This document shows positions 19,138 to 39,344 of a DNA stretch of 64,000 nucleotides, piece after piece; within the stretch, counting starts at the first letter, position 1; every line of letters begins with the position of its first letter. Location: sequence record OQ938542.1; one strand, given 5' to 3'. Both the position numbers and the translations under genes were made by a program. The stretch comes from Escherichia phage vB_EcoP_PE007. Under the pieces are notes generated by a model. That model worked only from the letters and a program-made list of their open reading frames with translations. It made no database searches and was not told the origin of the DNA.

Positions 19138-20117
19138 TGAAGATAACCAACAACCATGATGTATCACTGGCCCTGGCTGTATGGCTATTACATGATGAGT
19201 ATGATTACGTAGACAATCCTAAGTATCTGTCTGTTACCACATTGCTTAAGCCCATTAAGCAAATCGTCATGAAGCATCGTGTAGATTTAAGTGACCAGTC
19301 AATTGATGTTATGGATTTCGTCTCTACATCAATGGGTACCGGTTTACATGATTCTATCGAGAAAGCCTGGAAGCTAGGTCATAAGACTGCATTGAAGAAG
19401 TTGGGTTATCCTCAACGAGTAATTGATGCAGTAGTCATTAACCCAACCAAAGCAGACTTTGATGCTAACCCTGACCTTATCCCAATCTACATTGAACAAC
19501 GTGGAACCAGGGTAGTTAAGGGTTGGACTATCGGTGGTAAGTTCGACATCGTAACAGAAGGTCTGTTGCAGGACTTTAAGTCTACCTCAACCTATTCCTG
19601 GGTTGCTGGTTCCCGTGATGATGAACACAAGATGCAAGGCAGCTTGTACCGTTGGATTCACAACGACATCATTACTGAGGATGTAATTCGCATTAACTAC
19701 ATCTTCACTGACTTCATGAAACACATGGCTAATAGCAATCCGAACTATCCTGCTAATCGTATTATGCATAAGGACATTCCGTTGCTATCTGTCGAGAAGA
19801 CTGAACGTTGGGTAGAAGAAAAGATTCACCTCATTGAGAAGTACTGGAATGCACCTGAAGAGGAAATTCCTGAATGTACTGACGAGGAGTTGTGGCGAAC
19901 AGAGCCACAGTTCAAGTACTTCTCTGATGCTTCTAAGGTAGATGTACCTGGAGCCAGAAGTACCAAAAACTTTGACGATATGGCATCTGCTCGTATCTTC
20001 ATGGCTGAAAAAGGTGGCAAAGGTGCTATCAAGGTCGTGGAGGGGCAGGTTAAGCGTTGTCTGTACTGCCCTGTCGCGTCCATTTGCAAACAAAGAGAGA
20101 GATATTTTCCATCATGA
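19138..20117 (+). CDS. PD-(D/E)xK Cas4/RecB-like nuclease
   Basis: GKFDIV ... QDFK nuclease-core pattern and C-terminal CLYCPVASIC (Cx2Cx5C); ATG 19138 abuts the upstream stop. Confidence 0.5.
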
Positions 20118-22267
20118 GTATTGACCTGACCGGAGTCACTCACCACCCTGCAATTGAAGAAATTGTAGATGTGCTGTGTAACAAGACACAAAACAACGAC
20201 AGAGGATTCTTCCGTGTCGAAGTAGCCTACTTCCTGGCTAAAATGGCATCCTGTATGGGTGCAACCATTGTCACTAAAGACCGTGGTGACTTACCAGTCA
20301 ACATTTACGCTATGGCATTAGCAACGTCTGGCTTCGGTAAAGGTCACTCGGTAAATATTATTGAAGACGGATTCATGACTGGCTTCCGTAAACGCTTTAT
20401 GGAAGACACCATGCCCGTCATTGCAAATGACCGTCTATGGAAGATTGCTAACGAACGTGCTGCTCGACAAGGTACAGACCAGAATGATGAGTTTGATAAA
20501 GTTGAAGCAGAATATAAACGTGCTGGAGCATATCCGTTTACGTTTGACTCTGGTACTCCACCAGCAGTTAAACAACTACGTCATAAACTGTTAATGGCTG
20601 GGTGTGGTTCAATCAACCTTCAGATTGATGAAATTGGTTCTAACCTGCTGGCTAACACAGATGTATTAACTCTGTTCCTGGAACTGTATGACCAGGGTAA
20701 GGTTAAGCAGAAGTTAACCAAGAATACTGCTGAAAGTGTTCGTGGTGAAGAACTGGATGGTAAGACTCCAGCTAACCTGTTGCTGTTTGGTACACCCAGT
20801 AAGCTACTGGATGGTGGTCAGACCGAAGATCAGTTCTATGACTTCCTTGATACAGGGTATGCACGTCGTTGTCTGTTTGCCATTGGGCATTTAGACAAAC
20901 GAGCACATGCAACGCTAACTCCAGAGGAAATCTACCGTAACCTGATTAAGCAGGATAACGTACAGTCCCTTGGTAAGTGGGCTAATCACTTCCATAGTCT
21001 GGCTGACCCAAACCTGTTTGGTTTTAAGATGGTTGTGGAAGATGCTGTGGGTATTGCTCTGATTACTTACAAGATTGATTGCGAGAAACAAGCAGAAGCT
21101 ATGGCTGACCACGAAGAAATTCGTAAAGCTGAAATTTCCCACCGTTACTTCAAAGCTCTTAAGCTGGCTGGAGCACTGGCGTTTGTTGACCAGAGTTCAT
21201 TCATTGAAATGTCTCACCTTAAACAAGCAATCCTGCTCGTAGAGGAATCTGGGGCAGCATTCCAGGGTATTCTCAATCGTGAGAAAGCTTATGTGAAGCT
21301 GGCTAAGTATATCGCTTCTGTAGGTAAAGAAGTGACTCATGCTGACTTACTGGAGTCATTGCCGTTCTATAAGAGTGGCAATGCAGCTCGTAATGAGATG
21401 ATGACTCTTGCTACAGCATGGGGCTACAAACAGCACATCATCATTAAGAAAACCTTCAATGAAGGTATTGAGTTCTTCCGTGGGGAAACTCTGAAAGAGA
21501 CTGACATCAATGAGATGATAGTGGCATATAGTGATAGCTTTGCTTATGACTACATTGGTGAACGTGTACCGTTCGACCAGTTGCATGTATTAACTCAAGC
21601 TCCCGGTATGCACTGGGTAAACCATCACATGAAGAATGGACATCGTTCCGAAGAGAACGTTATTCCAGGATTTAACATGATTGTTATTGACTGTGATGGT
21701 GGAGTACCACTGCATACGTGCCATGAACTGATGAAGGAATATAAGTTCATGACCTATACCACTAAGCGTCATTCTGATGAAGAGAACCGCTTCCGGCTGA
21801 TTATTCCAATGAACTATGAGTTACACCTCGATACTGAGGAGTACAAAGAGTTCATGAATAACGTTATGTCTTGGCTACCGTTCGAAACGGATGAATCTGC
21901 TAACCAACGAGCCAAGAAGTGGATGTCCTGCGAGACTGGTTCCTATCATTACAATCTTGAAGCAAATCTGTTGGACGTGCGTGACTTTATTCCTCGTACT
22001 AGTAAGAACGAGCAGTTCCAGAACCAGATGAAGGAAGTACAGTCGTTGGATAATCTGGAGCGTTGGTTCGCTAGTCGTATTGCTACCGGTAATCGTAATA
22101 ATCAAATGATTAAGTACGCACTGGCATTGGTTGACAGTGGTTGGGATTTTGCCCAAGTACAGCAAGCCGTCCACTCATTCAATAAGAAACTGGCTAATCC
22201 ATTACCAGATGATGAATTGAATGCAACCGTAATGGTCACCGTGGCTAAACGCTTCGCTGGCAAATAA
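20114..22267 (+). CDS. putative DNA primase (prim-pol-like C-terminal region)
   Basis: ATG 20114 (ATGA overlap); IVIDCDGG Asp motif; N-terminal P-loop-like GFGKGHS and QIDEIG; sits in the replication module. Confidence 0.45.
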   Translation: MSIDLTGVTHHPAIEEIVDVLCNKTQNNDRGFFRVEVAYFLAKMASCMGATIVTKDRGDLPVNIYAMALATSGFGKGHSVNIIEDGFMTGFRKRFMEDTMPVIANDRLWKIANERAARQGTDQNDEFDKVEAEYKRAGAYPFTFDSGTPPAVKQLRHKLLMAGCGSINLQIDEIGSNLLANTDVLTLFLELYDQGKVKQKLTKNTAESVRGEELDGKTPANLLLFGTPSKLLDGGQTEDQFYDFLDTGYARRCLFAIGHLDKRAHATLTPEEIYRNLIKQDNVQSLGKWANHFHSLADPNLFGFKMVVEDAVGIALITYKIDCEKQAEAMADHEEIRKAEISHRYFKALKLAGALAFVDQSSFIEMSHLKQAILLVEESGAAFQGILNREKAYVKLAKYIASVGKEVTHADLLESLPFYKSGNAARNEMMTLATAWGYKQHIIIKKTFNEGIEFFRGETLKETDINEMIVAYSDSFAYDYIGERVPFDQLHVLTQAPGMHWVNHHMKNGHRSEENVIPGFNMIVIDCDGGVPLHTCHELMKEYKFMTYTTKRHSDEENRFRLIIPMNYELHLDTEEYKEFMNNVMSWLPFETDESANQRAKKWMSCETGSYHYNLEANLLDVRDFIPRTSKNEQFQNQMKEVQSLDNLERWFASRIATGNRNNQMIKYALALVDSGWDFAQVQQAVHSFNKKLANPLPDDELNATVMVTVAKRFAGK

Positions 22268-25149: not shown

Positions 25150-25320
25150 ATGAACAAATTTACTATTCACTGGCTCAATGGGAAGGTTAGTTCTTTCATG
25201 GGTGGAGAACCCGTTGAAGGAAAGAAAGCATTTCACATTGAATCGGAAGGCTGCAAAATCTTAGTACCATATGCTTGGTATAAAGAGGGTGAAGTAGAAG
25301 CATTAAAAAAGAGTAGTTAA
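25150..25320 (+). CDS. small hypothetical protein
   Basis: ATG 25150 with gagg RBS; last ORF before the ORF-poor locus. Confidence 0.4.
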   Translation: MNKFTIHWLNGKVSSFMGGEPVEGKKAFHIESEGCKILVPYAWYKEGEVEALKKSS

Positions 25321-26267
25321 TATCGTGAAGGGTTCTGTTAGAATCCTTTGAGATAGGAACTCCTATCATAACCTTTCTTATCTTAATCTTTGCCGTATGG
25401 CACTGACGCTAGGGTTGATGCCCATCCGTCAGGTAGACTATTTTAAGAATGGGTTATCACAGAAAATGTAAAGCAACATTCGGGTTAATCAATGGCCTCT
25501 CCCTATAGGGGCCATTTCTGAATCTTAGGCTATATCCCAAAGGTTAGTATCTTTAGGATAAGGCTTCAGATCCCTTATCAACTAACGCTCATGTTGAGCA
25601 CAACATTAACCAATAATGTCGGATAGTTCGTTATACTATTCATCCAGCATTGAGATGTTAGGTCTTACATGTAAACTAAATCATAGGGTAAAGAGGGACT
25701 CGTCATCCCTCCCCTATTATGACATCCTATCAATGAGTACATTAAGCTAACGTGCGGAGGTTTACACTGTAGCCGGTGTAGGTGGAGAAGACGGCAGGGT
25801 AGCTACCTGTGCTTAGTGTACTCTTTGATAGTTTTCGTAAGCGATTATGCGGTTTTTTAGAAATGAACCAATAACATAAATGCAAACGATGATGTTGTTC
25901 TGATGGCGGCGTAATAGCCTGTAAGTCAGCAAGGTCTTCCGACTCCTTGTAAGCAAATTCGGCGCAGTGGCCCGCTGTGATTAATAATGGGCACACAACA
26001 GGTAAGAGCATTTAGGCTACTGAGAAATCATCCGAGGCAATCAGACCTATCTTCTGTTAAGTGCTCTTTCCGTTGTGGTGAATGTGCAGGCTGATGCGCA
26101 GTGGGACGTGGCTGACTCACGAGGATGGCTCAAGCGAATAAGCAAGCTCGACGCCGCCGAATAAGCGCCTTATGCCGGAGATCAGTACCGGCCACCACAA
26201 CAAGTCCAGACGATATCTGAGTGACTATAAAAACAGATGGAGCCAGGTGGAATCCCTGGCAATTAAT

Positions 26268-26334
26268 TCCGGTGTAGGTACTAGCGTTGTGCACAAACGT
26301 GAGTGTTCTGGTTCGAGTCCAGACGCCGGAACCA
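26268..26334 (+). ncRNA. tRNA-like element (degenerate or D-arm-less tRNA with encoded CCA)
   Basis: 7-bp acceptor tccggtg/cgccgga (one GU), T-arm tctgg-TTCGAGT-ccaga, anticodon-like arm gcgtt-gtgcaca-aacgt, discriminator A plus CCA; no D-arm, so only about 64-67 nt. Confidence 0.3.
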
Positions 26335-26405
26335 ATTCAAAGTAGCATTGCACTAATCCATCCCGGAGTTCAAAGGCCAAACATGGAGCAGTGCTACTTT
26401 GAATT
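26334..26405. repeat. long inverted repeat (14 bp perfect, about 18 bp with one mismatch)
   Basis: aattcaaagtagca at 26334-26347 pairs with tgctactttgaatt at 26392-26405; left arm overlaps the CCA end of the tRNA-like element. Confidence 0.6.
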
Positions 26406-26779
26406 AGAAAGATTATGGGGGTAAGTCGTAACCATACGACGGCGTAAGTACCAGATGAGACTTCTGGACGCCCCTACCAGATTTGGGGTGTAACAGTTAA
26501 ATCCAGTTGCCGGAAGTGCTATTCTAGATACGCTGCCAATGTGTGAACGGTAAGGCTGTACAGGACTCGGACTCCCGCCTCAAACCAAAGTCGCCAGGTA
26601 CTTATGGCAAACGGGTAGTAACGAACTAGTCATTCGTCAAACGCCCACCCTATTATGAGTCAGCAAGAACGCCTTCACTTAAACTTAAACAATATAAGCT
26701 TAACGCAATAATTATGTAGGGGTATGTAAGGATTGCGAAGAAGGAGCCAGTTAAAGTCTGGCATGACTCACTCATTTAT

Positions 26780-26853
26780 GCCCACTTAGCTTAGACGGGG
26801 AAAGCAACCGACTAATAATCGGAAGGTCACTGGTTCAAATCCAGTAGTGGGTA
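26780..26853 (+). tRNA. tRNA (hand-folded anticodon AAU; identity uncertain)
   Basis: Acceptor gcccact/agtgggt (7 bp, one GU), D-arm gctt/aagc, anticodon arm accga-ctaataa-tcgga, 5-nt variable loop, T-arm actgg-TTCAAAT-ccagt, discriminator A; 74 nt. Confidence 0.65.
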
Positions 26854-27080
26854 CTTATTAATAGAGAACATAGTCCTGATTGCATTGCACTCTAAAGACA
26901 ATGCCGGTGAGACAGTCCGGCACTCTAATTATTGAAAACATACCTAACGGTGTGAGTATGAGCAGACTATAATGCTCAATTACAGTTAACTATTATCGGA
27001 CTATCAATCCTGTTTGCTGGTACAAGCACCGGTGGTAATAGTTAACTGGCCTAGCCTCGTTAGCTGCGTTAAAGCTACTA

Positions 27081-27105
27081 AGTCCCTCTTCGGAGGGACT
27101 TTTTT
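27081..27105 (+). terminator. rho-independent terminator closing the tRNA/structured-RNA locus
   Basis: agtccctc-ttcg-gagggact followed by T5. Confidence 0.75.
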
Positions 27106-27169
27106 ATTTGAGTATTGATGAACGCAATCATGCTTAAGTACAAATTCAAACCACTCTATGAGGCTAATA

Positions 27170-27550
27170 ATGGCAACAGTAAGTAAAGAAGCAATCGAAG
27201 CTAAGATTAAGAGCATTTACTTTTTCAATGGTGCAGATGCAGTGAAGTCTGCATTCGTTGACCCTTCTGCACTACCGGCAGATGATTTGGCTAACCTGGG
27301 TCTGACAACCCATTGTGTAATCATTCTGGAAAATGGATTTAAAGTTGAAGGTGTATCTGCTTGCGTAGACCCAACTATCTATGATGAGCAGTTAGGTCGC
27401 CAGTATGCATATGAAAATGCATTCAATAAGATTTGGGAATTAGAGGGCTACCTACTACGTCAGGCACTGCATGAGAAGGAAGAGACTGCTAAAGCTTTGG
27501 CTTCCTTTGCAGAAAACAATACCTGTGATGGTGGTGGTTGTACAATTTGA
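27170..27550 (+). CDS. hypothetical protein
   Basis: ATG 27170 with gagg RBS; first gene after terminator 27081-27105. Confidence 0.5.
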   Translation: MATVSKEAIEAKIKSIYFFNGADAVKSAFVDPSALPADDLANLGLTTHCVIILENGFKVEGVSACVDPTIYDEQLGRQYAYENAFNKIWELEGYLLRQALHEKEETAKALASFAENNTCDGGGCTI

Positions 27551-27630: not shown

Positions 27631-27655
27631 AAGCCCTCCTAGTGAGGGCTTTCTC
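27631..27655 (+). terminator. hairpin terminator/attenuator
   Basis: agccctc-ctagt-gagggct followed by ttctcattt. Confidence 0.45.
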
Positions 27656-27668
27656 ATTTGAGGTAGTT

Positions 27669-28184
27669 ATGTCAGAAGAAATTAAAGTCCATTTCACCAA
27701 CTACATTGGAACCAAGTGTGTAAATGGTTTCCGAATGAACAAAGAAACATACTGCAAACTTCGAGGCTGGGATGTACCAGCAGATGAAGATCCACTAGAA
27801 GAAGGTTACTTAGTCGAGTACCCAGACTCTAAGTCCAACCAACCTCAATTTCGTGGTTATCCTCAGTTCCGTGGCTATATTAGCTGGTCACCTAAAGCTG
27901 CATTTGAAGCTGCATACCATGACGTAGAAAAAGGTTGTACCTTTGGTCATGCAGTAGAGCTTCTCAAATCAGGCTTCAAACTAGCCCGTAAAGGCTGGAA
28001 TGGCAAAGAGATGTATATTTCCTATGTTGACCCAAAAGAGTGGAATAGTAGTGAACTGGAGCGTCCATGGGATGAAGACCTTAAGCCACGCCCGTGGATT
28101 GGTATCAAAACCGTCGATAATGAGTATATGCCTTGGGTTCCATCCCAATCGGATGTATTAGCAGAAGACTGGGTAATTCTATAG
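27669..28184 (+). CDS. protein with possible DUF2829/Tad2-like C-terminal domain
   Basis: ATG 27669 with gagg RBS; C-terminal FGHAVELLKSGFKLARKGWNGKEMYISYV ... PWVPSQSDVLAEDWVIL; assignment is from recalled family motif, not a search. Confidence 0.45.
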   Translation: MSEEIKVHFTNYIGTKCVNGFRMNKETYCKLRGWDVPADEDPLEEGYLVEYPDSKSNQPQFRGYPQFRGYISWSPKAAFEAAYHDVEKGCTFGHAVELLKSGFKLARKGWNGKEMYISYVDPKEWNSSELERPWDEDLKPRPWIGIKTVDNEYMPWVPSQSDVLAEDWVIL

Positions 28185-28192
28185 GAAACTAT

Positions 28193-28486
28193 ATGGAACT
28201 CTTTAAGAAAGGGCAGCTTATACCTAAGCGTATTGGTGGATTGCATGTTCATCGTAAAACAAGACACCGTTTAACCTTTGGTTGTGATGTACAAATTGAC
28301 GGTAACAATTGGATTGCTGTGCCAGATACTGGAAATTCAATGGTTCATTGTAAGAAGTTAGGTATTCGCAGAAACAACGGTACTTACCAAAAGGTACATG
28401 CTGATTTTGTAGATATTTACTTTAATGCCAACAAGATTGATTATGTAATCAAAACTGACCGAAAAGCTCTTGTAGTTAAGAAATAA
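28193..28486 (+). CDS. hypothetical basic protein
   Basis: ATG 28193 with aggaaa RBS; followed by hairpin terminator 28493-28517. Confidence 0.45.
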   Translation: MELFKKGQLIPKRIGGLHVHRKTRHRLTFGCDVQIDGNNWIAVPDTGNSMVHCKKLGIRRNNGTYQKVHADFVDIYFNANKIDYVIKTDRKALVVKK

Positions 28487-28492
28487 AATAGA

Positions 28493-28517
28493 AGCCCCTC
28501 ATTAGAGGGGCTTTTTC
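28493..28517. terminator. bidirectional terminator between convergent genes
   Basis: agcccctc-atta-gaggggct with T-rich flanks on both strands; lies between the + strand gene ending 28486 and the vRNAP stop at 28520. Confidence 0.65.
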
Positions 28518-28519
28518 AT

Positions 28520-31500
28520 TTAGTTAGTAAGATTGAGCCACGGGTTCAGGGTATGAGCACGTAAGCCTTGACCGAAACCGAAGGAGTAACCAAGATTGCC
28601 CTGTGCAGCAATACTAAAGATGTTGTCCTGAATAGGCAGACCAACGTTACCAAACATGGTAGGGGTTGGAGCCAACATAGCTATAGCAGCATGCACCGGG
28701 TTATTACGAATCATGGACACTGCAACTTTTGCAGAACGAATCTTAAAGTTATAGAACCACATTAAACCAACACTTTCCATATACCCACGGAAGCGACCCG
28801 GTAGACGGTCATAGTTAATAAACTCTTCCGTTACACGTCCTAGTGCTTCTTCACGGGTCTTACCTTTACGCTGAGTCAGTTCATCATAAATGATTGCTTT
28901 AGCGATAAAGTCAGAGTACTCAACCGTCTTCTGGATACCCTGGAACAGAGCAGTATCCTTAGTGATAAGTGCATAACGACCTGCGTTACGTACAGACTTA
29001 GGCAGCTTATCAGCCAGCTTATCCATGTATTCGTGAAGTTTGCCTTCAGTAATAAGGATATCATCACGACCAATACCAGCATCTGCAATTGAGGAGAACT
29101 CACCAGCTTCCAGCAGAGGCCAGATACTCAAACGTTTATGGCTATCAGAGATGGACTGAATCTCAGCCTTAAGTTTACGAATCTGGTTCGGGTTAGTAGC
29201 TGCACGTAATTCTGCTTCTGCATCTACCTGACGCAGACGAGATTTCAGGTACTGGTTAATCTCAGCAGTCTTCTGTGGAATGCTCTTAGCAATGTTCTTA
29301 ACCGGTACACCACGAGCAATCATCTGATAAAGGTTAGCCAGGAAGTTAACAGCAGGTACGACTACTGACTTAACCACAATCAGAGTCTTAGCTTCTTTAA
29401 CTAAGTTCTGAACCAGGTTCTCACCACCCATTACATACTTATAGGCACGGTTGCCAAAGACACCCAGCATAGCTTTCTTGAAGGTATCCAGTGTTTCTGG
29501 TGACCAACGGGAATTACCAGACCAGGCATCACCTACAGAAGCTGCACGATAACCCAGAGCATCGTTGAGCATGTCACGACGTACCCATAATTCACCCGGA
29601 CCAAACAAACTTTCTGCTTTCTGACGGGTTTCACTGTTCATCAGCTTAAGTGCATCGGCAGTTACTGGGTCCAGTTTAGAACCAAGAAGGTTAACGTACT
29701 GGGACTTATTAGAAGCAGACATCTTAATGTCGTTCTCATACATGCTATGCAGGTTCTCAATCAGCATATCATTGAAACGCTGAGCCTTAGCTTCTTCCAC
29801 CTGACGACCACGCCATACACCGATTGCACGAGCAAGATGGTTCTCACCTTCAATGTGCTTCAGCATATTAGGGTCAATGGATTGCTCATAAGCAACCACA
29901 TTACCATTGGCATCATATACAGGCAGCAGTGGTTCATTACCACGTTCACCACGAGCCAGTGCTTTAGTGATACGGTCTACGGAAGGCTTGTCAGTGATAC
30001 GACCAGCTACCATGGTTCCCATAGTAAAGCCCGTACCGAGATCTACACCACCAGCAGTATTACGAACGTTCTGTAAGATACCTTGCGAGAAAGGAGCCTG
30101 TGCCTGTACTGGTGCAAAGTAGTAGCTACGTGCTGGTCCACGATTAGCAGAGCTACCCTGATAAGTACCAAGACGTACATAGGATTTCTCAATCAAATCA
30201 GCAAACTGACTATCTTCAGCAACAATCAGGTTAACACCCTGTTTGTTCTCAGTTGGGATGTATCCTTTGTACTGATTCAGGGTTGCACGAGTATCAGACT
30301 TAGCTTTAGCCATTTCATCTTTACGCTGACCAACCAGGTAAGAAGTAGCAAAGTCCATGCCTTCAATTTCTGTCTGAGCCAGTGAAGATAACATCTCACG
30401 GTCAGTCTTATTCATTGCTTCCAGTGCATACAAAGTAATCAGTTTATCCAACTGAGCTACATCTACAACAGAACGTGTAGTCTTACGTTCACCCAGTAAA
30501 CGAGAAATTGCAGTAGCATTACGTAGCAGGTTGTTACCAACCGTACCATTAATCATGTATTGAGCCAGTTGCTTAGATTTACGATTAATCAGAGGCCAGT
30601 TACGTCCTGCTTGTTTCTGTAAATCTGCTTCCAGTTTATTAACCTCACGGTCAACAATCTTCTGGTCAGTCAGCAGGTCACGGATTTCAGCCAGAGACAT
30701 AGTGTCGCGAAGAACAGCTAAGTCAGTTTTACCCATACCAGTATGCATTGCTTTCCACTCATCGTTAGTCAGCTTACGGCTGAACTTAGATGCGATAGTA
30801 GTAGGCAAATGCTCACGGAACTGCTGACGGTCAGCCTGTACCTGTGCACGTACTGCTTTAATCAAATCATATACAGAAGCATTGCTCTTAGTACGACCAG
30901 TTAAGTCATTAACCAGGTCATGGAAAGGTTGCCATACTTTACCCTGGTTCATTGCAGCCATAACACCTTCAGCTACGATTGCACCATTCTTCTCTGTAGC
31001 AATAGCAGCTATCAATTGTGCAGCATGAGCAGCACCTTTAACCAGTGGGTTCTTGGTATTAGCTGCAACTTCACGAGCACCTTCCAAAGCACGGGTAGAC
31101 AGTACATCAATAGAGTCCACCAGATACTGGTTAGCACGGTCAATAGCATTACCGGTAGGAGTAGCAACGGAATCATAGAAGGACTCTGCATTAAGACTGG
31201 TCTGCATAATTGTCTGAGCCAGTGCATCCATACCTTCCTGTACGTTAGTGGCTTTAGTATCACCTGCTACACGAGCATTCAGGCTAGCCATTGCAGCAGT
31301 ACCGATGTTAGTCAGCATTGCATCAACGGTATTGCCTGATTTCTTATCTGCTTTCATAACAGGAATATCAGCCAGTACCTTACGTACCTCTTCGCTTACC
31401 ATTGCCAGACCAACAAAGGTAGGCAGTAAGGAAGAACGACCTTGTGCATCAAATTCAATGTTGTTAGCACCCATGATGGTATCGAACTTCTGCTGTGCAT

Positions 31501-34500
31501 AGTAACGGTCAGCAGGGTTAGTACTATCCGGGTCAGCCATGAATGATTCGACGGTCAGATTCTTAGTAACATGCGTGTAGTATTCCTGTGCACGAGCCAT
31601 AGCAGCAGGGTTAATAGCAGCCTCGGTAGCCAGTGCAGCAACAATGTTAGTAAAGAGACGCTGTTCCTGCATATTCATGGTGAAGCCATGTGCCTGAACA
31701 TCACGAGTTACTTTAGTTGCATTTACTACTGCATCAGAGAACTTACCTTTACGAATTACTTGCTGTACTGGTTCTGAACCAATGTAGTTAGTAATCAGCT
31801 TATCGAAGGTTTTCCCTAGCTCTTCCAGACGAGTATTGTCACCGTATGCTTTGTTATGGAACAAGGTAGTATCTTTAGCTACAGCAGTAGTAGGGGCCTG
31901 CCCACGCATTACTACAGCAGAGTTAAACAGTAAGCCAGAGAACATATCATCTGCATTAGCAGGAGCTTTCTTACGTCCGAATACCAGACGTTTGATTGCT
32001 TCATATACAGCCTGAACCATAGTTTTAAGTGCAGTGGTTTTCTTCTGCTTACTTATAAGTTCACGGTTGGTTAAACCCCAAGCCATGTACTCATTCAGTG
32101 CAGCAGCTTTAGCCATCGCTGGTTCAATAAAGCCATTAGACAAGTGACCATTAATGGTATTCAGTGCATTAGCATATGCTTCACGTACTGCCGGAGATTC
32201 ATCCTTAACATCCAGAGCACGGAACTGATTCATCAGGTCTTCAATATTCTGTACTGCTTCATTAGGAGTACCTTCATAGTGAGCCAGTACAGATTCAAAA
32301 GTAGAAGCATGTACTAATTCATGAACCAGAGTCTCTAAGGAAGGAGTAACTAAGTAGATGGTTTTATCTTCAAAGTTAGTCCAGCCATATGCATTACCAG
32401 CCTCAGCAGCTTCAATATCTTCTGGTGCTGGGCGAGTAATATTCTTCTCAATAGCGTAGGCATCCAGTTGAGAAGGCGTACCGTAAACAACCTTATAGTC
32501 TTTAGCAGCAAGAGATTTCTGTATTTCTTTCAGTACTGCTTGTTGTTCAGGGGACATCTCTTTAGCCAGTTTAGTAATGGCAGCATTAGACAGCAGACGT
32601 ACACCAGACTTCAGTACACGACCGACCTGTTCCATTGCTGGCACTTCTTTCACTGGTTCTGCTTTAGCAGCACGTACTGCATCACGACGCTTGTTTAATT
32701 CAGCATCAAACAGTTCGTTCAGCTTAGCTACTTGCTGGTCTACAGTCAGACCTTCCAGAGAGATTTTACCGTTGTTCACATAAGGAGCACCAACAGCAGC
32801 CATCTGGTCAACAGTGACTTGTACCTGGTCCATTACCTTGTGGCGAATATCTACACCCAGAGCAATATTACGCAGATTACGTTCAATCTGTTCAGCACCA
32901 ACACGTAACAGGTCATCAGTAGCACCCTCACGTTGGTCGTATTCCAGTGCAGATTTAGCGATAGCTTGTTTGGTTTCATCAGACAGTTTGCTGAAGTCTA
33001 CGTTCTTCATGAACTTAGCAAAGGAGTCATAAACATTCTTGATAGGGTTACCCTGCCAGGAAGTATATACAGCCTCATTAGCTTTACGGCTTGCATCAGT
33101 AATGTCATTAATACCAATGTTCATACCATCAAAGATTTTCAGGGTATTCTTCGGAGCACCTTTCATAGTAGAAAGGGTCTGCATCATCATGCCATCACCT
33201 GTACCGATGGTCATAAATGGAATACCTGCTACACCTGCCTGTGAAGGAGCATAGATGATCATTGGCACACGCATACGGTCATCTAAGTTGGTAGCCAATA
33301 CTTGGTTAGCAACATCAGTATTCTCACTACCAGCAATGTAGAAAGTCTGTGAACCAGTCTCAATCATTGGAGCCAGTGGAGACAATGAAGCCTGGATTTC
33401 ATTCAGTTCTTTCTGTGTTAAGAAATCACCTTTCTTCCATGTTGGGTCTTTTTCTTTTTCTGCCAGCTTAGCCTGTACAGCTTGTTGGAACATATCCTGC
33501 AATACCAGAGATTGAATCTGAGTAGCCTTCTGTAAGTTCTCAGTAGAATACATCAGACCCTCACCAACAGTATTTCGGATACCAGTACGCATTGGTTCAA
33601 CGAACAGATGAAGCATGTTCTCTTGTAAGTTCTTCAGAGCATTACCGGATACAGTAAACTTCTGAGGGTCTAACTTACCAGTCAGAGCACCATCTACCTG
33701 CTGAATAGACAACTCACCTTTACGCATAACCGGAACATTACCAGTTAGTGCTTCCATAGAAGTAAGGAAAGTATCCAGCATAGCCTGAGCATCAGCCTCA
33801 GACGCAGCCTCCTTACCAAACATAGCCATAGCTGGGGAAATGCTAGGGTCAGCAGCACGGGCTTGTAGAACGTCACTGAAGCGTTCGTAGATGGTATCAG
33901 TAATTGCACTAACCATCTTGCCAGCAATACCACGAGCACCAGAACCATAGATGGTAATGGTCAGTGGGTTTTTAGCGATACCACGTTTCAGGTCCAGAGT
34001 ACCATCTTCATTAAGATTGAAGTCTTTAATGAACAGGTCCATTAACTTCTGAAGATGCTTCATCTGGTTCGTAACAGGAACGTTGTTACGGTAAGTATTG
34101 CGTAATTCATTCAGTGCCTGTTGCAGACTATTAGTAGATGCTTCATACAGGTCAACACTGTCATCATGCGAATGATGCTCGTTCATAGTCTTGCCAGCTT
34201 TACCGAAGAACAAGCCACCCTTAGCAGTATTCTTAATCCAGTCTGAAGTGAACTTACCACCAGTCATTAATACCATTGCGTTGATTGGTCCGTTGGTTAC
34301 ACCATCGGCTTCAACGTACAGTGGGGTATTAAAGTTAGCACGGTCATCACTGTTAAGGTAACGGGCATATTCCATAAGAGCCATGAGAGCTACGAATGAT
34401 TTATCATTCCCCAAGGAAGTCTTCAGAATATCCACTGCATTAGCAGGTAAGTGACCAGACTTATCAAACTCAACCATCATATCAACAGCAGGTTTCAGTT

Positions 34501-37500
34501 TACCTTCCAGAGCTTTAGTCAGCTCATCTGACATAACTTCACGGGACATTTTATGAACTTTAATGCCTAATGCCTGAGCCAGTCCAAGCTGGAAGTCAGA
34601 GAACGTTTGACTGTTTTCATTACTTAAGTCGATGGTAGAGAAGGTTGGAAGGATTGCTTCACGAACCAGCTTACTGGATTGTGGGTTGTTCTTACCAAGC
34701 ATCTGCATACGACCTACACGGGTCATGTTGTAGCCGTAGTGAATAGGTGTATCCAGTCCATTCTCCTGTTCCTTAATTTGATTGATTACACCAAACAAAG
34801 AATCATATGCCATGGACACGGACAGGTTCTTACCTTCCAGTGATTTAGCAGTATTCACATTAAGCAACTCTGGGGTAAGAGCACCAGCACCCATTAATTC
34901 CAGAATGTTGTCACGACCCAATGCTTCATAGAAGTTAACCATAGGCATATGTACACGAAACTCAGTAGCTTGTTCTGCTTTGAGAGCAGCTTTCTGTTCC
35001 GGGGTATTATTAACAGCAGGGTTACGTAACTGAGTTTGAGCCACGGAAGGAATGTCATCACCCAGATACAATTTCTCTACTGGTTCTAAAAGGACAGTTT
35101 CCTCAATAGCAGTAGGGAATTTATTAATGGCATCGTTATCATCCAGCTTCTCAATGGTATACAGACCAACAGTCTTATTAGATTCTGGGTCAATCTCAGA
35201 CACATCTAACATGGACTCTTTAACTTCACCCATCTCAATAAGGGAAGACAGAATCTCTGTAGCCATTGCCATTGGGATACCCTTGGTATACCCCAAAGGT
35301 GCATTAGGATTACGATTCAAACCCCAATAGGATTCAATCTTTTGAGCTAGTGAGTTAGTAGCTTCAACCAGGGTCTGAGCATTCTCGAAGTCAGCCAGAA
35401 TACCTTCTGGTAGCAGAGATGCTTCCACACCAGTAATAGCAGCTACGTCTTTCATGTCTTTAACAGCAGCATTCTGTGTAGCAGTCAATCGCCATTGCAG
35501 ACCAGCAAGTACAGCAGTTTCTAATAGCTGGTCATTGAACTTAAAGGTGTCACCATCTTTCTCTACGATGTTAAGTAACTTACCACCTACCCAACGGTTA
35601 GCCTCAGTACCTTCCGCAAAACGTTTACCAACGTTCTTGTTAGCAAGGAACTTAGCCAGACGGTCAGACAGAGTAGTCTTCAGAGTTTCACCAAACTCAA
35701 ATAAGTCCTGGTAACGCTTAATCACATCACTTGTGAGAGCGTTATTTTCTTTTTGAGTAAATGCTTCAAAGCGAGCAGCAGAAGACAGTGCTTTCTTAAC
35801 ATCAGTCAAAGGAGACTCAGAGCCAATGGTACGAGACTTAGGTTCTTCTGGAAGACTAAATGCTTTAAGGAACTGGTTCGGTGTCTTGTCATTGTTGTAG
35901 ACAGGGAACACTGTTTCCATTTGAGATAAAGGTTTACCACCAACGGTATAGTCTGCTTTCAACTGAGCCAGTGATACTTCTTCCTTCTCTACATTATTGG
36001 TATTACGCCCAGACGTATCTACACCAATCTGAATCAGTGCATTGTTTGCTTCTACGAATGATTGAACAGTATTGAATTGTTCAGGAGTCAGCTTCTGATT
36101 ATCAAACAGTTGTAATGATACAAATGGTTGCTCACTTCCTTTGTAGAAAGTGGAGCGTACAGCACCAGTATCCAGAGACATATCACGGTAACCATCATGA
36201 CCAAATACATCAGACAGACTGATATGGTCACCATTGGAACCAACAACAGTACCATCATCAAAGAGCCAAGGACTCTCCTTACGGTCACCATACTTATTAA
36301 GAGTATCCTGTGAAATAGTATTCTCTTTCACATAAGAATCTCTTTCAGATTCAGTAGGCTGTTCAACGGTATCCTGTTTTTCAGATTGGTTCTCAGGTTC
36401 TTTTACAGTCTGTGGTTTAGACTCTTTAATAGTAGGTTCTGTTTTAACAGCTTCACTAACAGAGGGTTTAGTCTGTACAGTAGGGGTAACTGGTTCCTGT
36501 TTTGTAACAGGAGTTTCATCAACCTGATTCACTGGTTCATTGGTCTGTTGGGATTGAGCAGCATCAAGATTGCCCTGACGGAACTCTTTAACTACCTGGG
36601 CGGCAGGCTTGTCCAAACGTGAATCCAATGGGGTAACTTTCACATGAGAAACATTAAGCTCCGGGTAAGCCGTAGCAAGTGCGTTAGCAATATCAGCTAC
36701 GGTCTTGGCTTCCAGTCCTACTTGCTGGGCAAACTTAACAGACTTGGTATCATACGGATTGACACCGAGGCCAGTACGACTACGTACCCATTCACGCGAG
36801 GGAGTAAGAGCCTGATAATGGACAGACTTATTCTTATCCGCATTCCCAGAAATCAAATGCTCATTCAACGCTCCGACCTTATTCTGCATGTGCTGGGCGA
36901 ACTTCATAAAATCGCTCAGATAAGCGGAGGCCAAATCGAAGTTACCAGAGTTATACGCAGAACGAATGCGTTTCGCATGTTGCAACGCAGAGTACTGTCC
37001 TTCATTAGAACGAGACTCATCGGTTTTAATCTGTTTACTAACAATATCTTGAGGACGTAAGCCTAGTTCTTCTGCTTTAGCGTCGAACTCTCGTGCACCC
37101 TGTAATAAGGCAGCAGCAGATTGCAGGGCAGCACGTTGACGATTCCCCAGTGTAATCTTACCTTCACTTGCATGTTTCAGAACCATGTTCACTGAATCTG
37201 CATCCAGCACTTCTGGAGATACATCAGCAGCCATAGCAATGTTGTTTGCTTGGGCTTGGTTAGCTTCTTCAGTAGCTTTCAGTTTACCTGCTTCAGCCTG
37301 TTCCTGAATCATGGAATGGATGGCACGGAATGCACGAAGTACCTTCGGTGTATTCTGAACGTTAGCCATCAGGCCGGAGAATTGGTCTACGATTGCAGCA
37401 GCAGGGGAACCTTGTTCCAGATTAGCCAAAGCACCCGGGTCACGGTTAATGAAGCTATCCATAGACATGATATTGTCATACATCTGGATTGCAGCTTCCA

Positions 37501-39274
37501 TTTGAACGTTAGGGTCTTCGGCAGTATTAACCAAGTCAGCCATCTTCTGAATAGCTTCTACACGGTTAGTGGAACCAGAAACAGCTTCACGGATTGCTGG
37601 GTTAGTTTGTTCCAATTCTACCGGGTCAAACTTCATTGCCTGAGTTAAGTCAGCAGCATACTGGGTAGCAGCAGCTTTCTCTTCTGGAGAAATATCCATT
37701 GCATCCACTGCTTCCTGAACAGTTGCTTGAGCTTGTTCTGCCTGAGCAGTAGCTTCTTGTGCAGCAGCGTTAACCGTAGCATCAGATACGGGGGATGCTT
37801 GTTCATTACGCTTAGCAACTTCTTCCCCACGTTGAACCAGGATGTTAGTAATAGGTGAAGCTACTTTTGCTAGTGCCTTACCAGCCAAAGAAGCACCAGC
37901 CAGGGTAGTACGTACAGCAGGACCAACGGCAGCACCAGCAGCCTTAACAGTTGCACCAGGAGCTTGAGCAACTCCAGCAGAACCGAAGCCATACAATGCA
38001 CCCAGACCAGTTTGTTCACCCACACCTTTAAGCAAATCACGCTCAGCATCTACATTGCCATGAATTGCCTTGTTTTGTGCAAACTGACTTGTACCAGACT
38101 GGATACCTTCTTCTACAGTCTCACGCAGCATGTTAGAACCAGCACCAGCCAGTGAACCTACCTTAAGTGGGTTAAGTTCAAACTTGGATACCAGTGGAGC
38201 AGTAAGAGCAGCAACTGGAGCAGTTAAGCCAGCAGCAGTGATACCTGTTTCAGATGCAGTCTGGCGACGTGCTTCTTCAGGAGACAGACCGTCTTTAATA
38301 TGCTGTTGGTATACAGGAGATTTAGCAGCCAGTTCACTGAATGGCATTTCCATAATTTCATTAGCAGTCTGTTGGTATGCACCACCAGCTTCCATACCAC
38401 CAATTGCTATAGCAGGTGCAGCAACACGACCAGCAGTCTGTGCAATACGTGCAGGACGATAACCTAATTCAGCAGCTAGGGTAATACCCTTAACAGCTTT
38501 ATCACCACCTACCATTACTTTACCAAGTGCAGATACACCACGGATAAGTGGACCACCTGTAAAGAGGGAACCAACACCTTCACTCAGTCCGTCAGAAGCA
38601 GCCATACCATTATCAAGTGTGTTAGCAACAGAATCAAAAGCGTCACGACCAATACGAGACAAGGAGGCAACCAAATCGCTCCCCCCATTTTTGATATCTT
38701 GTTCATAGAGCTTCTGGTTCTTCCGTGCAGAAATCTGGTTCTGATTCTGAACAACTTTACGTGTAGCATTCAGTGCATCAGACTGTAGATTGTGTACACC
38801 CTCATTCAACCAATCCATCCCGGAAGCAATGGTTGCCCCGGCATTATTATTGACCAAACCTGCGCCAAGAGCAGCAATGCCCCCAAGGGTATTAGCAACA
38901 CCAAGACCAACACCAGAAAGAGTATCGCCAAATGCTTCTGCGTTAGTACGTTGTTTAGATAAGTCCTGACGTACAACATCAGCAGCATTAGCTCGGCTAT
39001 TAAGAATCTGTAAACCTTGCTCATTACCGTACTTATTAATGATTTCTAATGGGGAGGCTTGAGTGAAATCTGCCTGAAGTGAACCTGGTTCGAATGCACC
39101 GATTCCAAGATTACCTACTCGTCCAGTCTGGAGATTGTAAGCATTCTCTGGGGTTAATTGGAAAGGGCTTTGCCCTTGTGCAGCTTGCTTCTGAGAGGTT
39201 GCAGTAGAGACATCGACTTGCTTAGCATTAGTGATGCTGTCTGCGAAACCTGCCAGACGGTCAAATGTTGACAT
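28520..39274 (-). CDS. virion-encapsidated RNA polymerase (vRNAP, N4 gp50-like)
   Basis: Single uninterrupted ~3584-aa ORF, a size characteristic of N4-like vRNAP; ATG at 39274 with aggaaa RBS (track start 39292 is TTG). Confidence 0.85.
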   Translation of the reverse strand: MSTFDRLAGFADSITNAKQVDVSTATSQKQAAQGQSPFQLTPENAYNLQTGRVGNLGIGAFEPGSLQADFTQASPLEIINKYGNEQGLQILNSRANAADVVRQDLSKQRTNAEAFGDTLSGVGLGVANTLGGIAALGAGLVNNNAGATIASGMDWLNEGVHNLQSDALNATRKVVQNQNQISARKNQKLYEQDIKNGGSDLVASLSRIGRDAFDSVANTLDNGMAASDGLSEGVGSLFTGGPLIRGVSALGKVMVGGDKAVKGITLAAELGYRPARIAQTAGRVAAPAIAIGGMEAGGAYQQTANEIMEMPFSELAAKSPVYQQHIKDGLSPEEARRQTASETGITAAGLTAPVAALTAPLVSKFELNPLKVGSLAGAGSNMLRETVEEGIQSGTSQFAQNKAIHGNVDAERDLLKGVGEQTGLGALYGFGSAGVAQAPGATVKAAGAAVGPAVRTTLAGASLAGKALAKVASPITNILVQRGEEVAKRNEQASPVSDATVNAAAQEATAQAEQAQATVQEAVDAMDISPEEKAAATQYAADLTQAMKFDPVELEQTNPAIREAVSGSTNRVEAIQKMADLVNTAEDPNVQMEAAIQMYDNIMSMDSFINRDPGALANLEQGSPAAAIVDQFSGLMANVQNTPKVLRAFRAIHSMIQEQAEAGKLKATEEANQAQANNIAMAADVSPEVLDADSVNMVLKHASEGKITLGNRQRAALQSAAALLQGAREFDAKAEELGLRPQDIVSKQIKTDESRSNEGQYSALQHAKRIRSAYNSGNFDLASAYLSDFMKFAQHMQNKVGALNEHLISGNADKNKSVHYQALTPSREWVRSRTGLGVNPYDTKSVKFAQQVGLEAKTVADIANALATAYPELNVSHVKVTPLDSRLDKPAAQVVKEFRQGNLDAAQSQQTNEPVNQVDETPVTKQEPVTPTVQTKPSVSEAVKTEPTIKESKPQTVKEPENQSEKQDTVEQPTESERDSYVKENTISQDTLNKYGDRKESPWLFDDGTVVGSNGDHISLSDVFGHDGYRDMSLDTGAVRSTFYKGSEQPFVSLQLFDNQKLTPEQFNTVQSFVEANNALIQIGVDTSGRNTNNVEKEEVSLAQLKADYTVGGKPLSQMETVFPVYNNDKTPNQFLKAFSLPEEPKSRTIGSESPLTDVKKALSSAARFEAFTQKENNALTSDVIKRYQDLFEFGETLKTTLSDRLAKFLANKNVGKRFAEGTEANRWVGGKLLNIVEKDGDTFKFNDQLLETAVLAGLQWRLTATQNAAVKDMKDVAAITGVEASLLPEGILADFENAQTLVEATNSLAQKIESYWGLNRNPNAPLGYTKGIPMAMATEILSSLIEMGEVKESMLDVSEIDPESNKTVGLYTIEKLDDNDAINKFPTAIEETVLLEPVEKLYLGDDIPSVAQTQLRNPAVNNTPEQKAALKAEQATEFRVHMPMVNFYEALGRDNILELMGAGALTPELLNVNTAKSLEGKNLSVSMAYDSLFGVINQIKEQENGLDTPIHYGYNMTRVGRMQMLGKNNPQSSKLVREAILPTFSTIDLSNENSQTFSDFQLGLAQALGIKVHKMSREVMSDELTKALEGKLKPAVDMMVEFDKSGHLPANAVDILKTSLGNDKSFVALMALMEYARYLNSDDRANFNTPLYVEADGVTNGPINAMVLMTGGKFTSDWIKNTAKGGLFFGKAGKTMNEHHSHDDSVDLYEASTNSLQQALNELRNTYRNNVPVTNQMKHLQKLMDLFIKDFNLNEDGTLDLKRGIAKNPLTITIYGSGARGIAGKMVSAITDTIYERFSDVLQARAADPSISPAMAMFGKEAASEADAQAMLDTFLTSMEALTGNVPVMRKGELSIQQVDGALTGKLDPQKFTVSGNALKNLQENMLHLFVEPMRTGIRNTVGEGLMYSTENLQKATQIQSLVLQDMFQQAVQAKLAEKEKDPTWKKGDFLTQKELNEIQASLSPLAPMIETGSQTFYIAGSENTDVANQVLATNLDDRMRVPMIIYAPSQAGVAGIPFMTIGTGDGMMMQTLSTMKGAPKNTLKIFDGMNIGINDITDASRKANEAVYTSWQGNPIKNVYDSFAKFMKNVDFSKLSDETKQAIAKSALEYDQREGATDDLLRVGAEQIERNLRNIALGVDIRHKVMDQVQVTVDQMAAVGAPYVNNGKISLEGLTVDQQVAKLNELFDAELNKRRDAVRAAKAEPVKEVPAMEQVGRVLKSGVRLLSNAAITKLAKEMSPEQQAVLKEIQKSLAAKDYKVVYGTPSQLDAYAIEKNITRPAPEDIEAAEAGNAYGWTNFEDKTIYLVTPSLETLVHELVHASTFESVLAHYEGTPNEAVQNIEDLMNQFRALDVKDESPAVREAYANALNTINGHLSNGFIEPAMAKAAALNEYMAWGLTNRELISKQKKTTALKTMVQAVYEAIKRLVFGRKKAPANADDMFSGLLFNSAVVMRGQAPTTAVAKDTTLFHNKAYGDNTRLEELGKTFDKLITNYIGSEPVQQVIRKGKFSDAVVNATKVTRDVQAHGFTMNMQEQRLFTNIVAALATEAAINPAAMARAQEYYTHVTKNLTVESFMADPDSTNPADRYYAQQKFDTIMGANNIEFDAQGRSSLLPTFVGLAMVSEEVRKVLADIPVMKADKKSGNTVDAMLTNIGTAAMASLNARVAGDTKATNVQEGMDALAQTIMQTSLNAESFYDSVATPTGNAIDRANQYLVDSIDVLSTRALEGAREVAANTKNPLVKGAAHAAQLIAAIATEKNGAIVAEGVMAAMNQGKVWQPFHDLVNDLTGRTKSNASVYDLIKAVRAQVQADRQQFREHLPTTIASKFSRKLTNDEWKAMHTGMGKTDLAVLRDTMSLAEIRDLLTDQKIVDREVNKLEADLQKQAGRNWPLINRKSKQLAQYMINGTVGNNLLRNATAISRLLGERKTTRSVVDVAQLDKLITLYALEAMNKTDREMLSSLAQTEIEGMDFATSYLVGQRKDEMAKAKSDTRATLNQYKGYIPTENKQGVNLIVAEDSQFADLIEKSYVRLGTYQGSSANRGPARSYYFAPVQAQAPFSQGILQNVRNTAGGVDLGTGFTMGTMVAGRITDKPSVDRITKALARGERGNEPLLPVYDANGNVVAYEQSIDPNMLKHIEGENHLARAIGVWRGRQVEEAKAQRFNDMLIENLHSMYENDIKMSASNKSQYVNLLGSKLDPVTADALKLMNSETRQKAESLFGPGELWVRRDMLNDALGYRAASVGDAWSGNSRWSPETLDTFKKAMLGVFGNRAYKYVMGGENLVQNLVKEAKTLIVVKSVVVPAVNFLANLYQMIARGVPVKNIAKSIPQKTAEINQYLKSRLRQVDAEAELRAATNPNQIRKLKAEIQSISDSHKRLSIWPLLEAGEFSSIADAGIGRDDILITEGKLHEYMDKLADKLPKSVRNAGRYALITKDTALFQGIQKTVEYSDFIAKAIIYDELTQRKGKTREEALGRVTEEFINYDRLPGRFRGYMESVGLMWFYNFKIRSAKVAVSMIRNNPVHAAIAMLAPTPTMFGNVGLPIQDNIFSIAAQGNLGYSFGFGQGLRAHTLNPWLNLTN

Positions 39275-39344
39275 AGCATGTTTCCTGTTCAAACTTATAT
39301 CGTATATAGGTAACTTACTCTACAGTAAGCCAGTTAAAGAAAAA

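Follow-up and report, generated by a model that had tools for sequence, protein, structure and literature searches.

Phage proteins of the Tad2 family inhibit types I, II and IV of the bacterial defence system Thoeris, as well as Pycsar and the cyclic-oligonucleotide-based antiphage signalling systems (CBASS), often several of them together. The gene considered here, at positions 27669-28184 of a 64,000-nucleotide (nt) stretch of Escherichia phage vB_EcoP_PE007 (sequence record OQ938542.1; this whole stretch is called the window below), encodes a protein of 171 amino acids (aa) that carries such a domain at its C-terminus, preceded by a second domain, the N-domain, which recurs beside other phage sponges of immune signals. 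Two solved Tad2 proteins, from Bacillus phage SPO1 (Protein Data Bank (PDB) codes 8SME/8SMF/8SMG) and from a Myroides odoratus prophage (ModTad2 or MoTad2, 8V3E/9EIB), belong to the same Pfam family and have the same fold and the pocket residues W-N-G, W, S and D. However, each of them consists of a single domain of 88-89 aa whose ligands have been measured, namely 3'cADPR/2'cADPR (forms of cyclic ADP-ribose, cADPR) for the former and His-ADPR plus cyclic UMP (cUMP) for the latter, whereas the 171-aa protein has an extra N-terminal domain of ~88 aa.

Fusions of Tad2 with another small phage domain have also been described. Functional fusions of two sponges include Acb4-Tad2 of Pasteurella phage Pm86, Tad2-Sequestin and Acb4-Sequestin (bioRxiv 10.1101/2025.07.12.664507), where Sequestin (PF21825) is a sponge for 3'cADPR and Acb4 (PF13876) a sponge for cyclic GMP-AMP (cGAMP; bioRxiv 10.1101/2024.12.30.630793). 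The 171-aa protein likewise joins Tad2 to another small domain in one chain, at the same kind of locus, but both halves of those fusions are proven sponges, unlike the N-domain. As described by Fedorova et al. (June 2026 preprint, bioRxiv 10.64898/2026.06.04.730250), RyR Tad, which is gp68 of the N4-like Pectobacterium phage vB_PatP_CB1, has a C-terminal RyR-like domain that sponges glycocyclic ADP-ribose (gcADPR) and explains the ligand spectrum of the full-length protein. Its N-terminal domain forms a strand-swapped dimer in the crystal and, when alone, has no activity against type I Thoeris. The same work recognises a hot spot for gene acquisition in N4-like phages, extending from the primase gene to that of the virion RNA polymerase (vRNAP), where Tad2, Tad3, Acb4 and Sequestin are found. 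RyR Tad and the 171-aa protein have in common a homologous N-domain followed by a sponge domain, as well as the same hot spot of an N4-like phage; they differ in the sponge itself, which in RyR Tad is a RyR Repeat12-like helical domain instead of Tad2.

Regarding N4 gp49 and its orthologs in Enquatrovirus and Gamaleyavirus, they show the same two domains and the same place, between a gene of the Acb4 family (N4 gp48) and the convergent vRNAP gene. Compared with N4 gp49, the 171-aa protein bears a 6-aa tandem duplication in a loop of the N-domain and another type of insertion between strands beta2 and beta3 of the Tad2 domain, and its gene has a 118-nt hairpin-bearing spacer after the Acb4 gene and an extra 97-aa gene behind it. 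The overall model favoured here, held with good confidence, is that of a two-domain counter-defence protein in which a Tad2 sponge is combined with an accessory N-domain. The parts of the gene and its product are the following (AlphaFold2 confidence is given as the predicted local distance difference test, pLDDT).

27660..27663, + strand: GAGG resembling a Shine-Dalgarno sequence, 5 nt 5' of the ATG, read from the sequence
27669..28184, + strand: coding sequence (stop included) of the two-domain protein, 171 aa, ortholog of phage N4 gp49 (EF056009 numbering)
27693..27923, + strand: N-domain, a sponge-associated domain of about residues 9-85, beta-beta-alpha-beta-beta-alpha (AlphaFold2 models, pLDDT 81-83)
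27843..27878, + strand: 18-bp tandem duplication (Tandem Repeats Finder (TRF): period 18, 2 copies, 83% match), giving PQFRGY-PQFRGY in a low-confidence loop before strand beta4 of the N-domain
27939..28178, + strand: Tad2-like domain (DUF2829, PF11195), residues 91-170, recognised by Pfam, PDB sequence matches, Foldseek and pocket residues

The gene is a real open reading frame (ORF), with match statistics far beyond chance: at E <= 0.001, the homologs of its product exceed 1,300, more than 120 of them spanning at least 92% of the length, PHROG 872 (phrog_872) is matched end to end (E 1.6e-62), and N4 gp49 (ABK54417.1, EF056009) is 71% identical across the full length. In RefSeq, the orthologs carry the label 'DUF2829 domain-containing protein'. 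The start at 27669 is backed by homologs whose sequence opens MSEEIKVHF; given this common beginning, a 237-aa ORF delimited from 27471 by an ORF finder is an artefact of a frame that stays open through the preceding spacer. The 18-bp duplication accounts for the length of 171 aa, compared to 165 aa in relatives, and the repeated PQFRGY is also present in a metagenomic relative (P0001), while it is missing from N4 and, as an alignment gap, from the 165-aa relatives. The start codons of the orthologs are annotated inconsistently, as that of phage Bas96 (L004, 3615-4049) uses an internal Met, resulting in 144 aa with the N-domain cut short, and that of phage F22 (P0024) is taken from an upstream start inside the spacer, resulting in 209 aa.

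It is near certain that residues 91-170 belong to the Tad2 family, as profile, fold and pocket agree. The Pfam family PF11195 'Tad2-like' scores 85.7 bits on them (E 3.3e-24; gathering cut-off 25), covering positions 2-72 of the 73 in the profile. Among PDB sequences, the closest solved relative is ModTad2 (9EIB/8V3E; E 1.5e-19, 73.7 bits), and SPO1 Tad2 (8SME) is matched with an E of 6e-14, the identity of the C-terminal domain to these two being 41-45%. An AlphaFold2 monomer model was built from 71 homologs (mean pLDDT 83), and with it Foldseek returned 24 Tad2 chains at probability 1.0, with target-normalised template modelling (TM) scores of 0.58-0.89, the maximum being reached by SPO1 Tad2 complexed with gcADPR; no fold other than Tad2 was found below E 0.1. 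The original prediction, which preceded these searches and was made from the DNA letters and their translated ORFs, had named DUF2829 for this part and proposed a profile search with PF11195 and a structural comparison with Tad2 as checks, and both have borne out that call, together with the pocket residues.

The pocket can be followed residue by residue. In SPO1 Tad2, 1''-3' gcADPR is held by W25, N26, W73, D79, S76, D67, T65 and I63 (Yirmiya et al. preprint), which correspond to W110, N111, W156, D162, S159, D150, T148 and I146 of the 171-aa protein. In addition, the pocket residues W21/N22/G23 and S90/T92/D93 of HgmTad2 (Li et al. preprint) align with W110/N111/G112 and S159/S161/D162. A substitution of T78 by S161 is seen in the pocket, and W110, N111, G112, W156, S159 and D162 are invariant in 71 of the 71 aligned two-domain homologs. 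By analogy with these relatives, a sponge function of the 171-aa protein is likely. Following the solved Tad2 structures, its Tad2 domain would form a homotetramer, and the pockets between the protomers would bind and sequester the NAD-derived alarm molecule made by a TIR (Toll/interleukin-1 receptor) protein, for which 3'cADPR/2'cADPR, His-ADPR or N7-cADPR are candidates. With the signal sequestered, the Thoeris effector would never be switched on.

Regarding the N-domain, the original prediction had considered it a novel extension, foreign to the Tad2 family, a view contradicted by its distribution. N4 gp49, at the identity given above, has the same two domains, which also share a PHROG of their own, and the motif GYLVEY occurs at least 93 times in a part of the supplementary sequence tables (Tad2 homolog lists included) of the original Tad2 paper. 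Moreover, a profile of nine sequences, mainly stand-alone copies (two of the nine turned out to be truncated Tad2 fusions), retrieves 2,834 clusters (50% identity), of which 1,288 reach E <= 1e-10. The domain extends beyond N4-like phages to Vibrio, Clostridium, Pseudomonas and jumbo phages. The N-domain is then a known but unnamed and functionally uncharacterised domain, and not novel to phage vB_EcoP_PE007. Searching with its profile gave nothing in the PDB up to E 10, nothing in NCBIfam and nothing meaningful in Pfam, where three single-member chance matches were obtained across 37 members (E <= 10, best E 0.15). Across diverse homologs, 16 positions are invariant and nine nearly so, many of them aromatic or charged. 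The cysteines to which attention had been drawn are without evident significance because they are not conserved among the aligned homologs (C17 in 12/71, C29 in 26/71 and C90 in 26/71). Two named families were compared with the N-domain and rejected as its identity: the genes of Lockin have a different beginning and, as reported, are missing from model phages, and Acb5 is reported to occur chiefly in Actinobacteriota phages (Streptomyces, Mycobacterium), with other key residues described.

A link to RyR Tad emerges from both structure and sequence comparisons. As seen with Foldseek over viral models (BFVD), the N-domain fold is located at the N-terminus of the 'RyR domain' protein of Yersinia phage TG1 (E 8e-5), the protein which the annotation of CB1 names as similar to gp68; the same search also places it at the head of longer proteins of N4-like phages. 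Aligning the N-domain profile with residues 4-66 of CB1 gp68 by hhalign gives a probability of 96.3% and an E of 1.7e-9 over 63 columns. Judged from these alignments, the N-domain and the N-terminal domain of CB1 gp68 are the same domain, although the latter is shortened and divergent and lacks motifs such as RGW and PADEN. The monomer model of the N-domain has four strands and two helices, and its short first strand could be the swapped one, the dimer of RyR Tad having a five-stranded sheet.

The partners of the N-domain were surveyed in the 150 best cluster representatives of the 2,834. Pfam recognises Tad2 in 53 of these 150, PF21825 (Sequestin) in 42, PF13876 (Acb4) in 19 and the Acb2/Tad1 hairpin domain in two, and one further representative (P0355) has a RyR Tad-like domain. 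By our own domain parsing of the same set, the common layouts are N-Tad2 (41), N-Sequestin (21), Acb4-N-Sequestin (8) and N-Acb4 (4), and all three kinds of domain, N-domain, Acb4 and Sequestin, are united in Axy13_069 of an Achromobacter N4-like phage. Stand-alone N-domain genes exist as well, with 74-99 aa. One of them (P0123, 75 aa) lies 3 nt 5' of an Acb4 gene (94 aa) on a contig that resembles a temperate phage (L009, 3001-3515), the two being a split form of the N-domain-Acb4 fusion, while another (P0124) adjoins a portal gene and has no recognisable sponge in its vicinity. The N-domain is thus a recurrent partner, fused or adjacent, of at least five unrelated sponge families, namely Tad2, Sequestin, Acb4, the Acb2/Tad1 hairpin and RyR Tad. 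In ~40 of the 150 representatives (within P0142-P0369), it is followed by 46-146 aa without a Pfam match, mostly BLAST singletons, and sponge families not yet recognised may be among them, for example in the C-terminal regions of P0239, P0248/P0346, P0277/P0318, P0283 and P0333. Some of the unrecognised regions behind the N-domain are degenerate DUF2829-like sequences or frameshift artefacts.

On its own, the gene changes little, being one further member of a Tad2 family of thousands, at an already described anti-signalling hot spot. The interest that remains lies in the N-domain, which the model phage N4 carries as well. It is found in ~2,800 clusters, has no Pfam entry and occurs almost exclusively with sponges of immune signals. 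Since it travels in this company, it is a cheap marker for new sponge families, to be sought in what is fused behind it. Whether it only dimerises sponges or has an activity of its own is a question that is experimentally tractable in an E. coli phage.

For the first of these possibilities, the RyR Tad homolog is the basis: the N-domain would provide a second, strand-swapped dimer interface, coupling or stabilising the sponge oligomers, and the chances of this role as a dimerising accessory are about evenly balanced. Several points weigh against the two-domain model in which a Tad2 sponge is served by such an accessory. The conservation of the N-domain exceeds what a simple dimerisation module would need, and its stand-alone occurrence hints at a function of its own. 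The inactivity of the N-terminal domain of CB1 gp68, being that of a divergent and shortened copy, may not generalise to other N-domains. On the side of the sponge, H71 of SPO1 Tad2 is M154 in the 171-aa protein, and Tad2 proteins are known to differ widely in specificity, their targets ranging over Thoeris I, II and IV as well as Pycsar and CBASS. In the literature, no published test of binding, oligomeric state or defence was found for N4 gp49 or its G7C-like orthologs.

The main rival, which does not exclude the accessory role, takes the N-domain as an autonomous counter-defence module, either a sponge for another signal or a binder of a host immune protein, making the protein a dual inhibitor like Acb4-Tad2 or Acb4-Sequestin. 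The fusion to known sponges is the very logic by which Sequestin was found. The N-domain is joined to five or more sponge families, has 2,834 clusters, is very strongly conserved, with many invariant aromatic and charged residues, and is also encoded by stand-alone genes, once away from any recognisable sponge. However, its counterpart in CB1 gp68 is inactive against type I Thoeris, and the ligand spectrum of full-length RyR Tad is accounted for by the C-domain. The acidic character of the N-domain (isoelectric point (pI) 5.3) argues little, as the Tad2 domain is acidic too (pI 4.9). On balance, this dual inhibition appears rather unlikely. A related proposal, that the N-domain is an unnamed autonomous counter-defence module acting as a sponge for a further signal or as an adaptor that shields sponges from decoy-based surveillance, is likewise regarded as improbable. 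If the N-domain were indeed autonomous, the ~40 uncharacterised C-terminal partners among the 150 representatives would be a ready catalogue of new sponge families.

Returning to the Tad2 domain of the favoured two-domain model, this domain scores better against ModTad2, a binder of His-ADPR plus cUMP, than against SPO1 Tad2, and it keeps the SPO1-like motif 'PSQ(S/T)D'. The insertion between beta2 and beta3 has ~23 aa (residues ~121-143, 28029-28097), compared to 24 aa in SPO1 Tad2 and 41 aa in HgmTad2, where these 41 aa shape the cyclic dinucleotide pocket (Li et al. preprint); in HgmTad2 and MoTad2, this region makes a second ligand pocket. It is also the most variable part, with at least four unrelated sequence types among relatives whose N-domains are 60-95% identical, and N4 gp49 has a type other than that of the 171-aa protein. 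At the sequence level, this four-type variation suggests a cassette-like exchange or diversifying selection. It would be conceivable, then, that the Tad2 domain binds, alone or additionally, a signal from outside Thoeris, such as cUMP or cyclic CMP (cCMP) of Pycsar or cyclic dinucleotides, by means of a second pocket derived from the insertion. MoTad2, the closest solved relative, binds cUMP in its second pocket, where HgmTad2 binds the cyclic dinucleotides cGG/cGAMP, and a hypervariable insertion is the pattern expected under diversifying selection. However, the insertion is as short as that of SPO1 Tad2, which binds no cyclic nucleotides, and the canonical ADPR-type pocket is fully conserved, leaving this possibility distinctly unlikely.

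Several GenBank records give the label 'anti-CRISPR protein' to homologs, namely those of phages Mimir124, 24-32N, Huey and Louie, which would make the 171-aa protein an anti-CRISPR of the AcrIIA7 type. It shares with AcrIIA7/HgmTad2 (8KBI-8KBM) the DUF2829 core and the gcADPR pocket residues, and its sequence weakly matches the chains 8kbi and 9kzr (E ~2e-9), mainly in residues 88-121, but the two differ in the insertion and in the cyclic dinucleotide pocket that the longer one forms. The label is inherited through the common DUF2829 domain. To our knowledge, type II-A CRISPR-Cas is absent from E. coli, which counts against the anti-CRISPR assignment. Moreover, according to Li et al. (preprint), the inhibition of Cas9 by AcrIIA7/HgmTad2 or other Tad2 homologs was not reproducible, AcrIIA7/HgmTad2 being a sponge for gcADPR and cyclic dinucleotides, and an anti-CRISPR function is thus highly improbable. 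Finally, a Tudor/SH3-like N-domain interacting with RNA polymerase (RNAP), of the type of CarD, the RNAP-interacting domain (RID) of Mfd or the C-terminal domain of UvrD, and tied to the transcription programme of N4, is scarcely credible, as the N-domain is widespread outside N4-like phages, its partners are sponges and not transcription factors, and there is no significant structural similarity to Tudor-like RNAP-binding domains of the CarD/Mfd RID type.

The surroundings of the gene agree with those of the described systems. The 64-kb window groups with the G7C-like (Gamaleyavirus) N4-like podophages of E. coli, with a nucleotide similarity of 84-94% over the matched stretches, and its hot spot contains the following features.

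20057..22267, + strand: primase gene (PriCT_1), left boundary of the hot spot
26780..26854, + strand: single tRNA gene, tRNA-Ile with anticodon AAT by ARAGORN
27080..27101, + strand: terminator-like hairpin 5' of the three-gene block
27158..27550, + strand: Acb4-family (PF13876) gene, candidate anti-CBASS sponge (Pfam E 4.2e-25; 47% identity to N4 gp48)
27631..27651, no strand assigned: hairpin with a weak T-tail in the 118-nt spacer that separates the Acb4-like gene from the Tad2 gene
28193..28486, + strand: basic 97-aa ORF (phrog_29107), a variable accessory gene with which the hot spot ends
28490..28515, no strand assigned: bidirectional terminator-like hairpin separating the + strand block from the convergent vRNAP gene
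28520..39292, - strand: vRNAP gene, 3,590 aa, convergent, annotated as vRNAP in relatives, right boundary of the hot spot

The Tad2 gene is located between the primase and vRNAP genes, with the Acb4 homolog directly upstream, and the order is that of N4, where gp48 (Acb4 family) is followed by gp49 (N-domain and Tad2) and then by vRNAP. Based on the family assignments, it is likely that the locus holds two different sponge families side by side, the Acb4 homolog being an anti-CBASS sponge of cyclic dinucleotides. Upstream of the three-gene block lie the tRNA-Ile gene, a 1.4-kb ORF-free stretch and genes similar to N4 gp47, gp46, that of the single-stranded DNA-binding protein (SSB), gp44 and primase. 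The original prediction had described a three-gene unit bounded by terminators next to a tRNA locus. The flanking hairpins at 27080-27101 and 28490-28515 are in line with such a unit, but the extra hairpin at 27631-27651 stands between its first and second genes, where it may act in processing or as a partial terminator. Terminator-like hairpins number 10, compared to 3.2 expected. Similarly, the tRNA locus is there, but as the one detectable tRNA gene (26780-26854) and not as a cluster. Its anticodon, AAT, is unusual for bacteria, and the close relative Bas96 has a tRNA-Val annotated at the equivalent place.

The right end of the hot spot varies among close relatives, and not all G7C-like phages have the 97-aa gene, which is limited to some of them. 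Its product has no Pfam or PDB match. By tblastn against phages, it shows ~80% protein identity to genes of unrelated siphoviruses of 45-47 kb, namely Salmonella phage Skate, Shigella phage DS8 and E. coli phage swi2. Judged from its sequence relationships, it resembles an accessory gene that moves horizontally, and it is a candidate for a role in counter-defence.

The ORF-free stretch (25320-26780, 1.4 kb), especially at ~25827-26210, matches 239 phage records. A core of 190-370 bp is 80-93% identical at the nucleotide level to unannotated DNA of unrelated phages of Klebsiella, Salmonella, Enterobacter, Pseudomonas, Erwinia and Shigella. RNA folding of 25800-26220 indicates no excess stability (z -0.54), and Rfam gives only sub-threshold matches resembling transfer-messenger RNA (tmRNA; 31 bits). 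Among relatives, assorted tRNA or pseudo-tRNA genes are annotated in this stretch.

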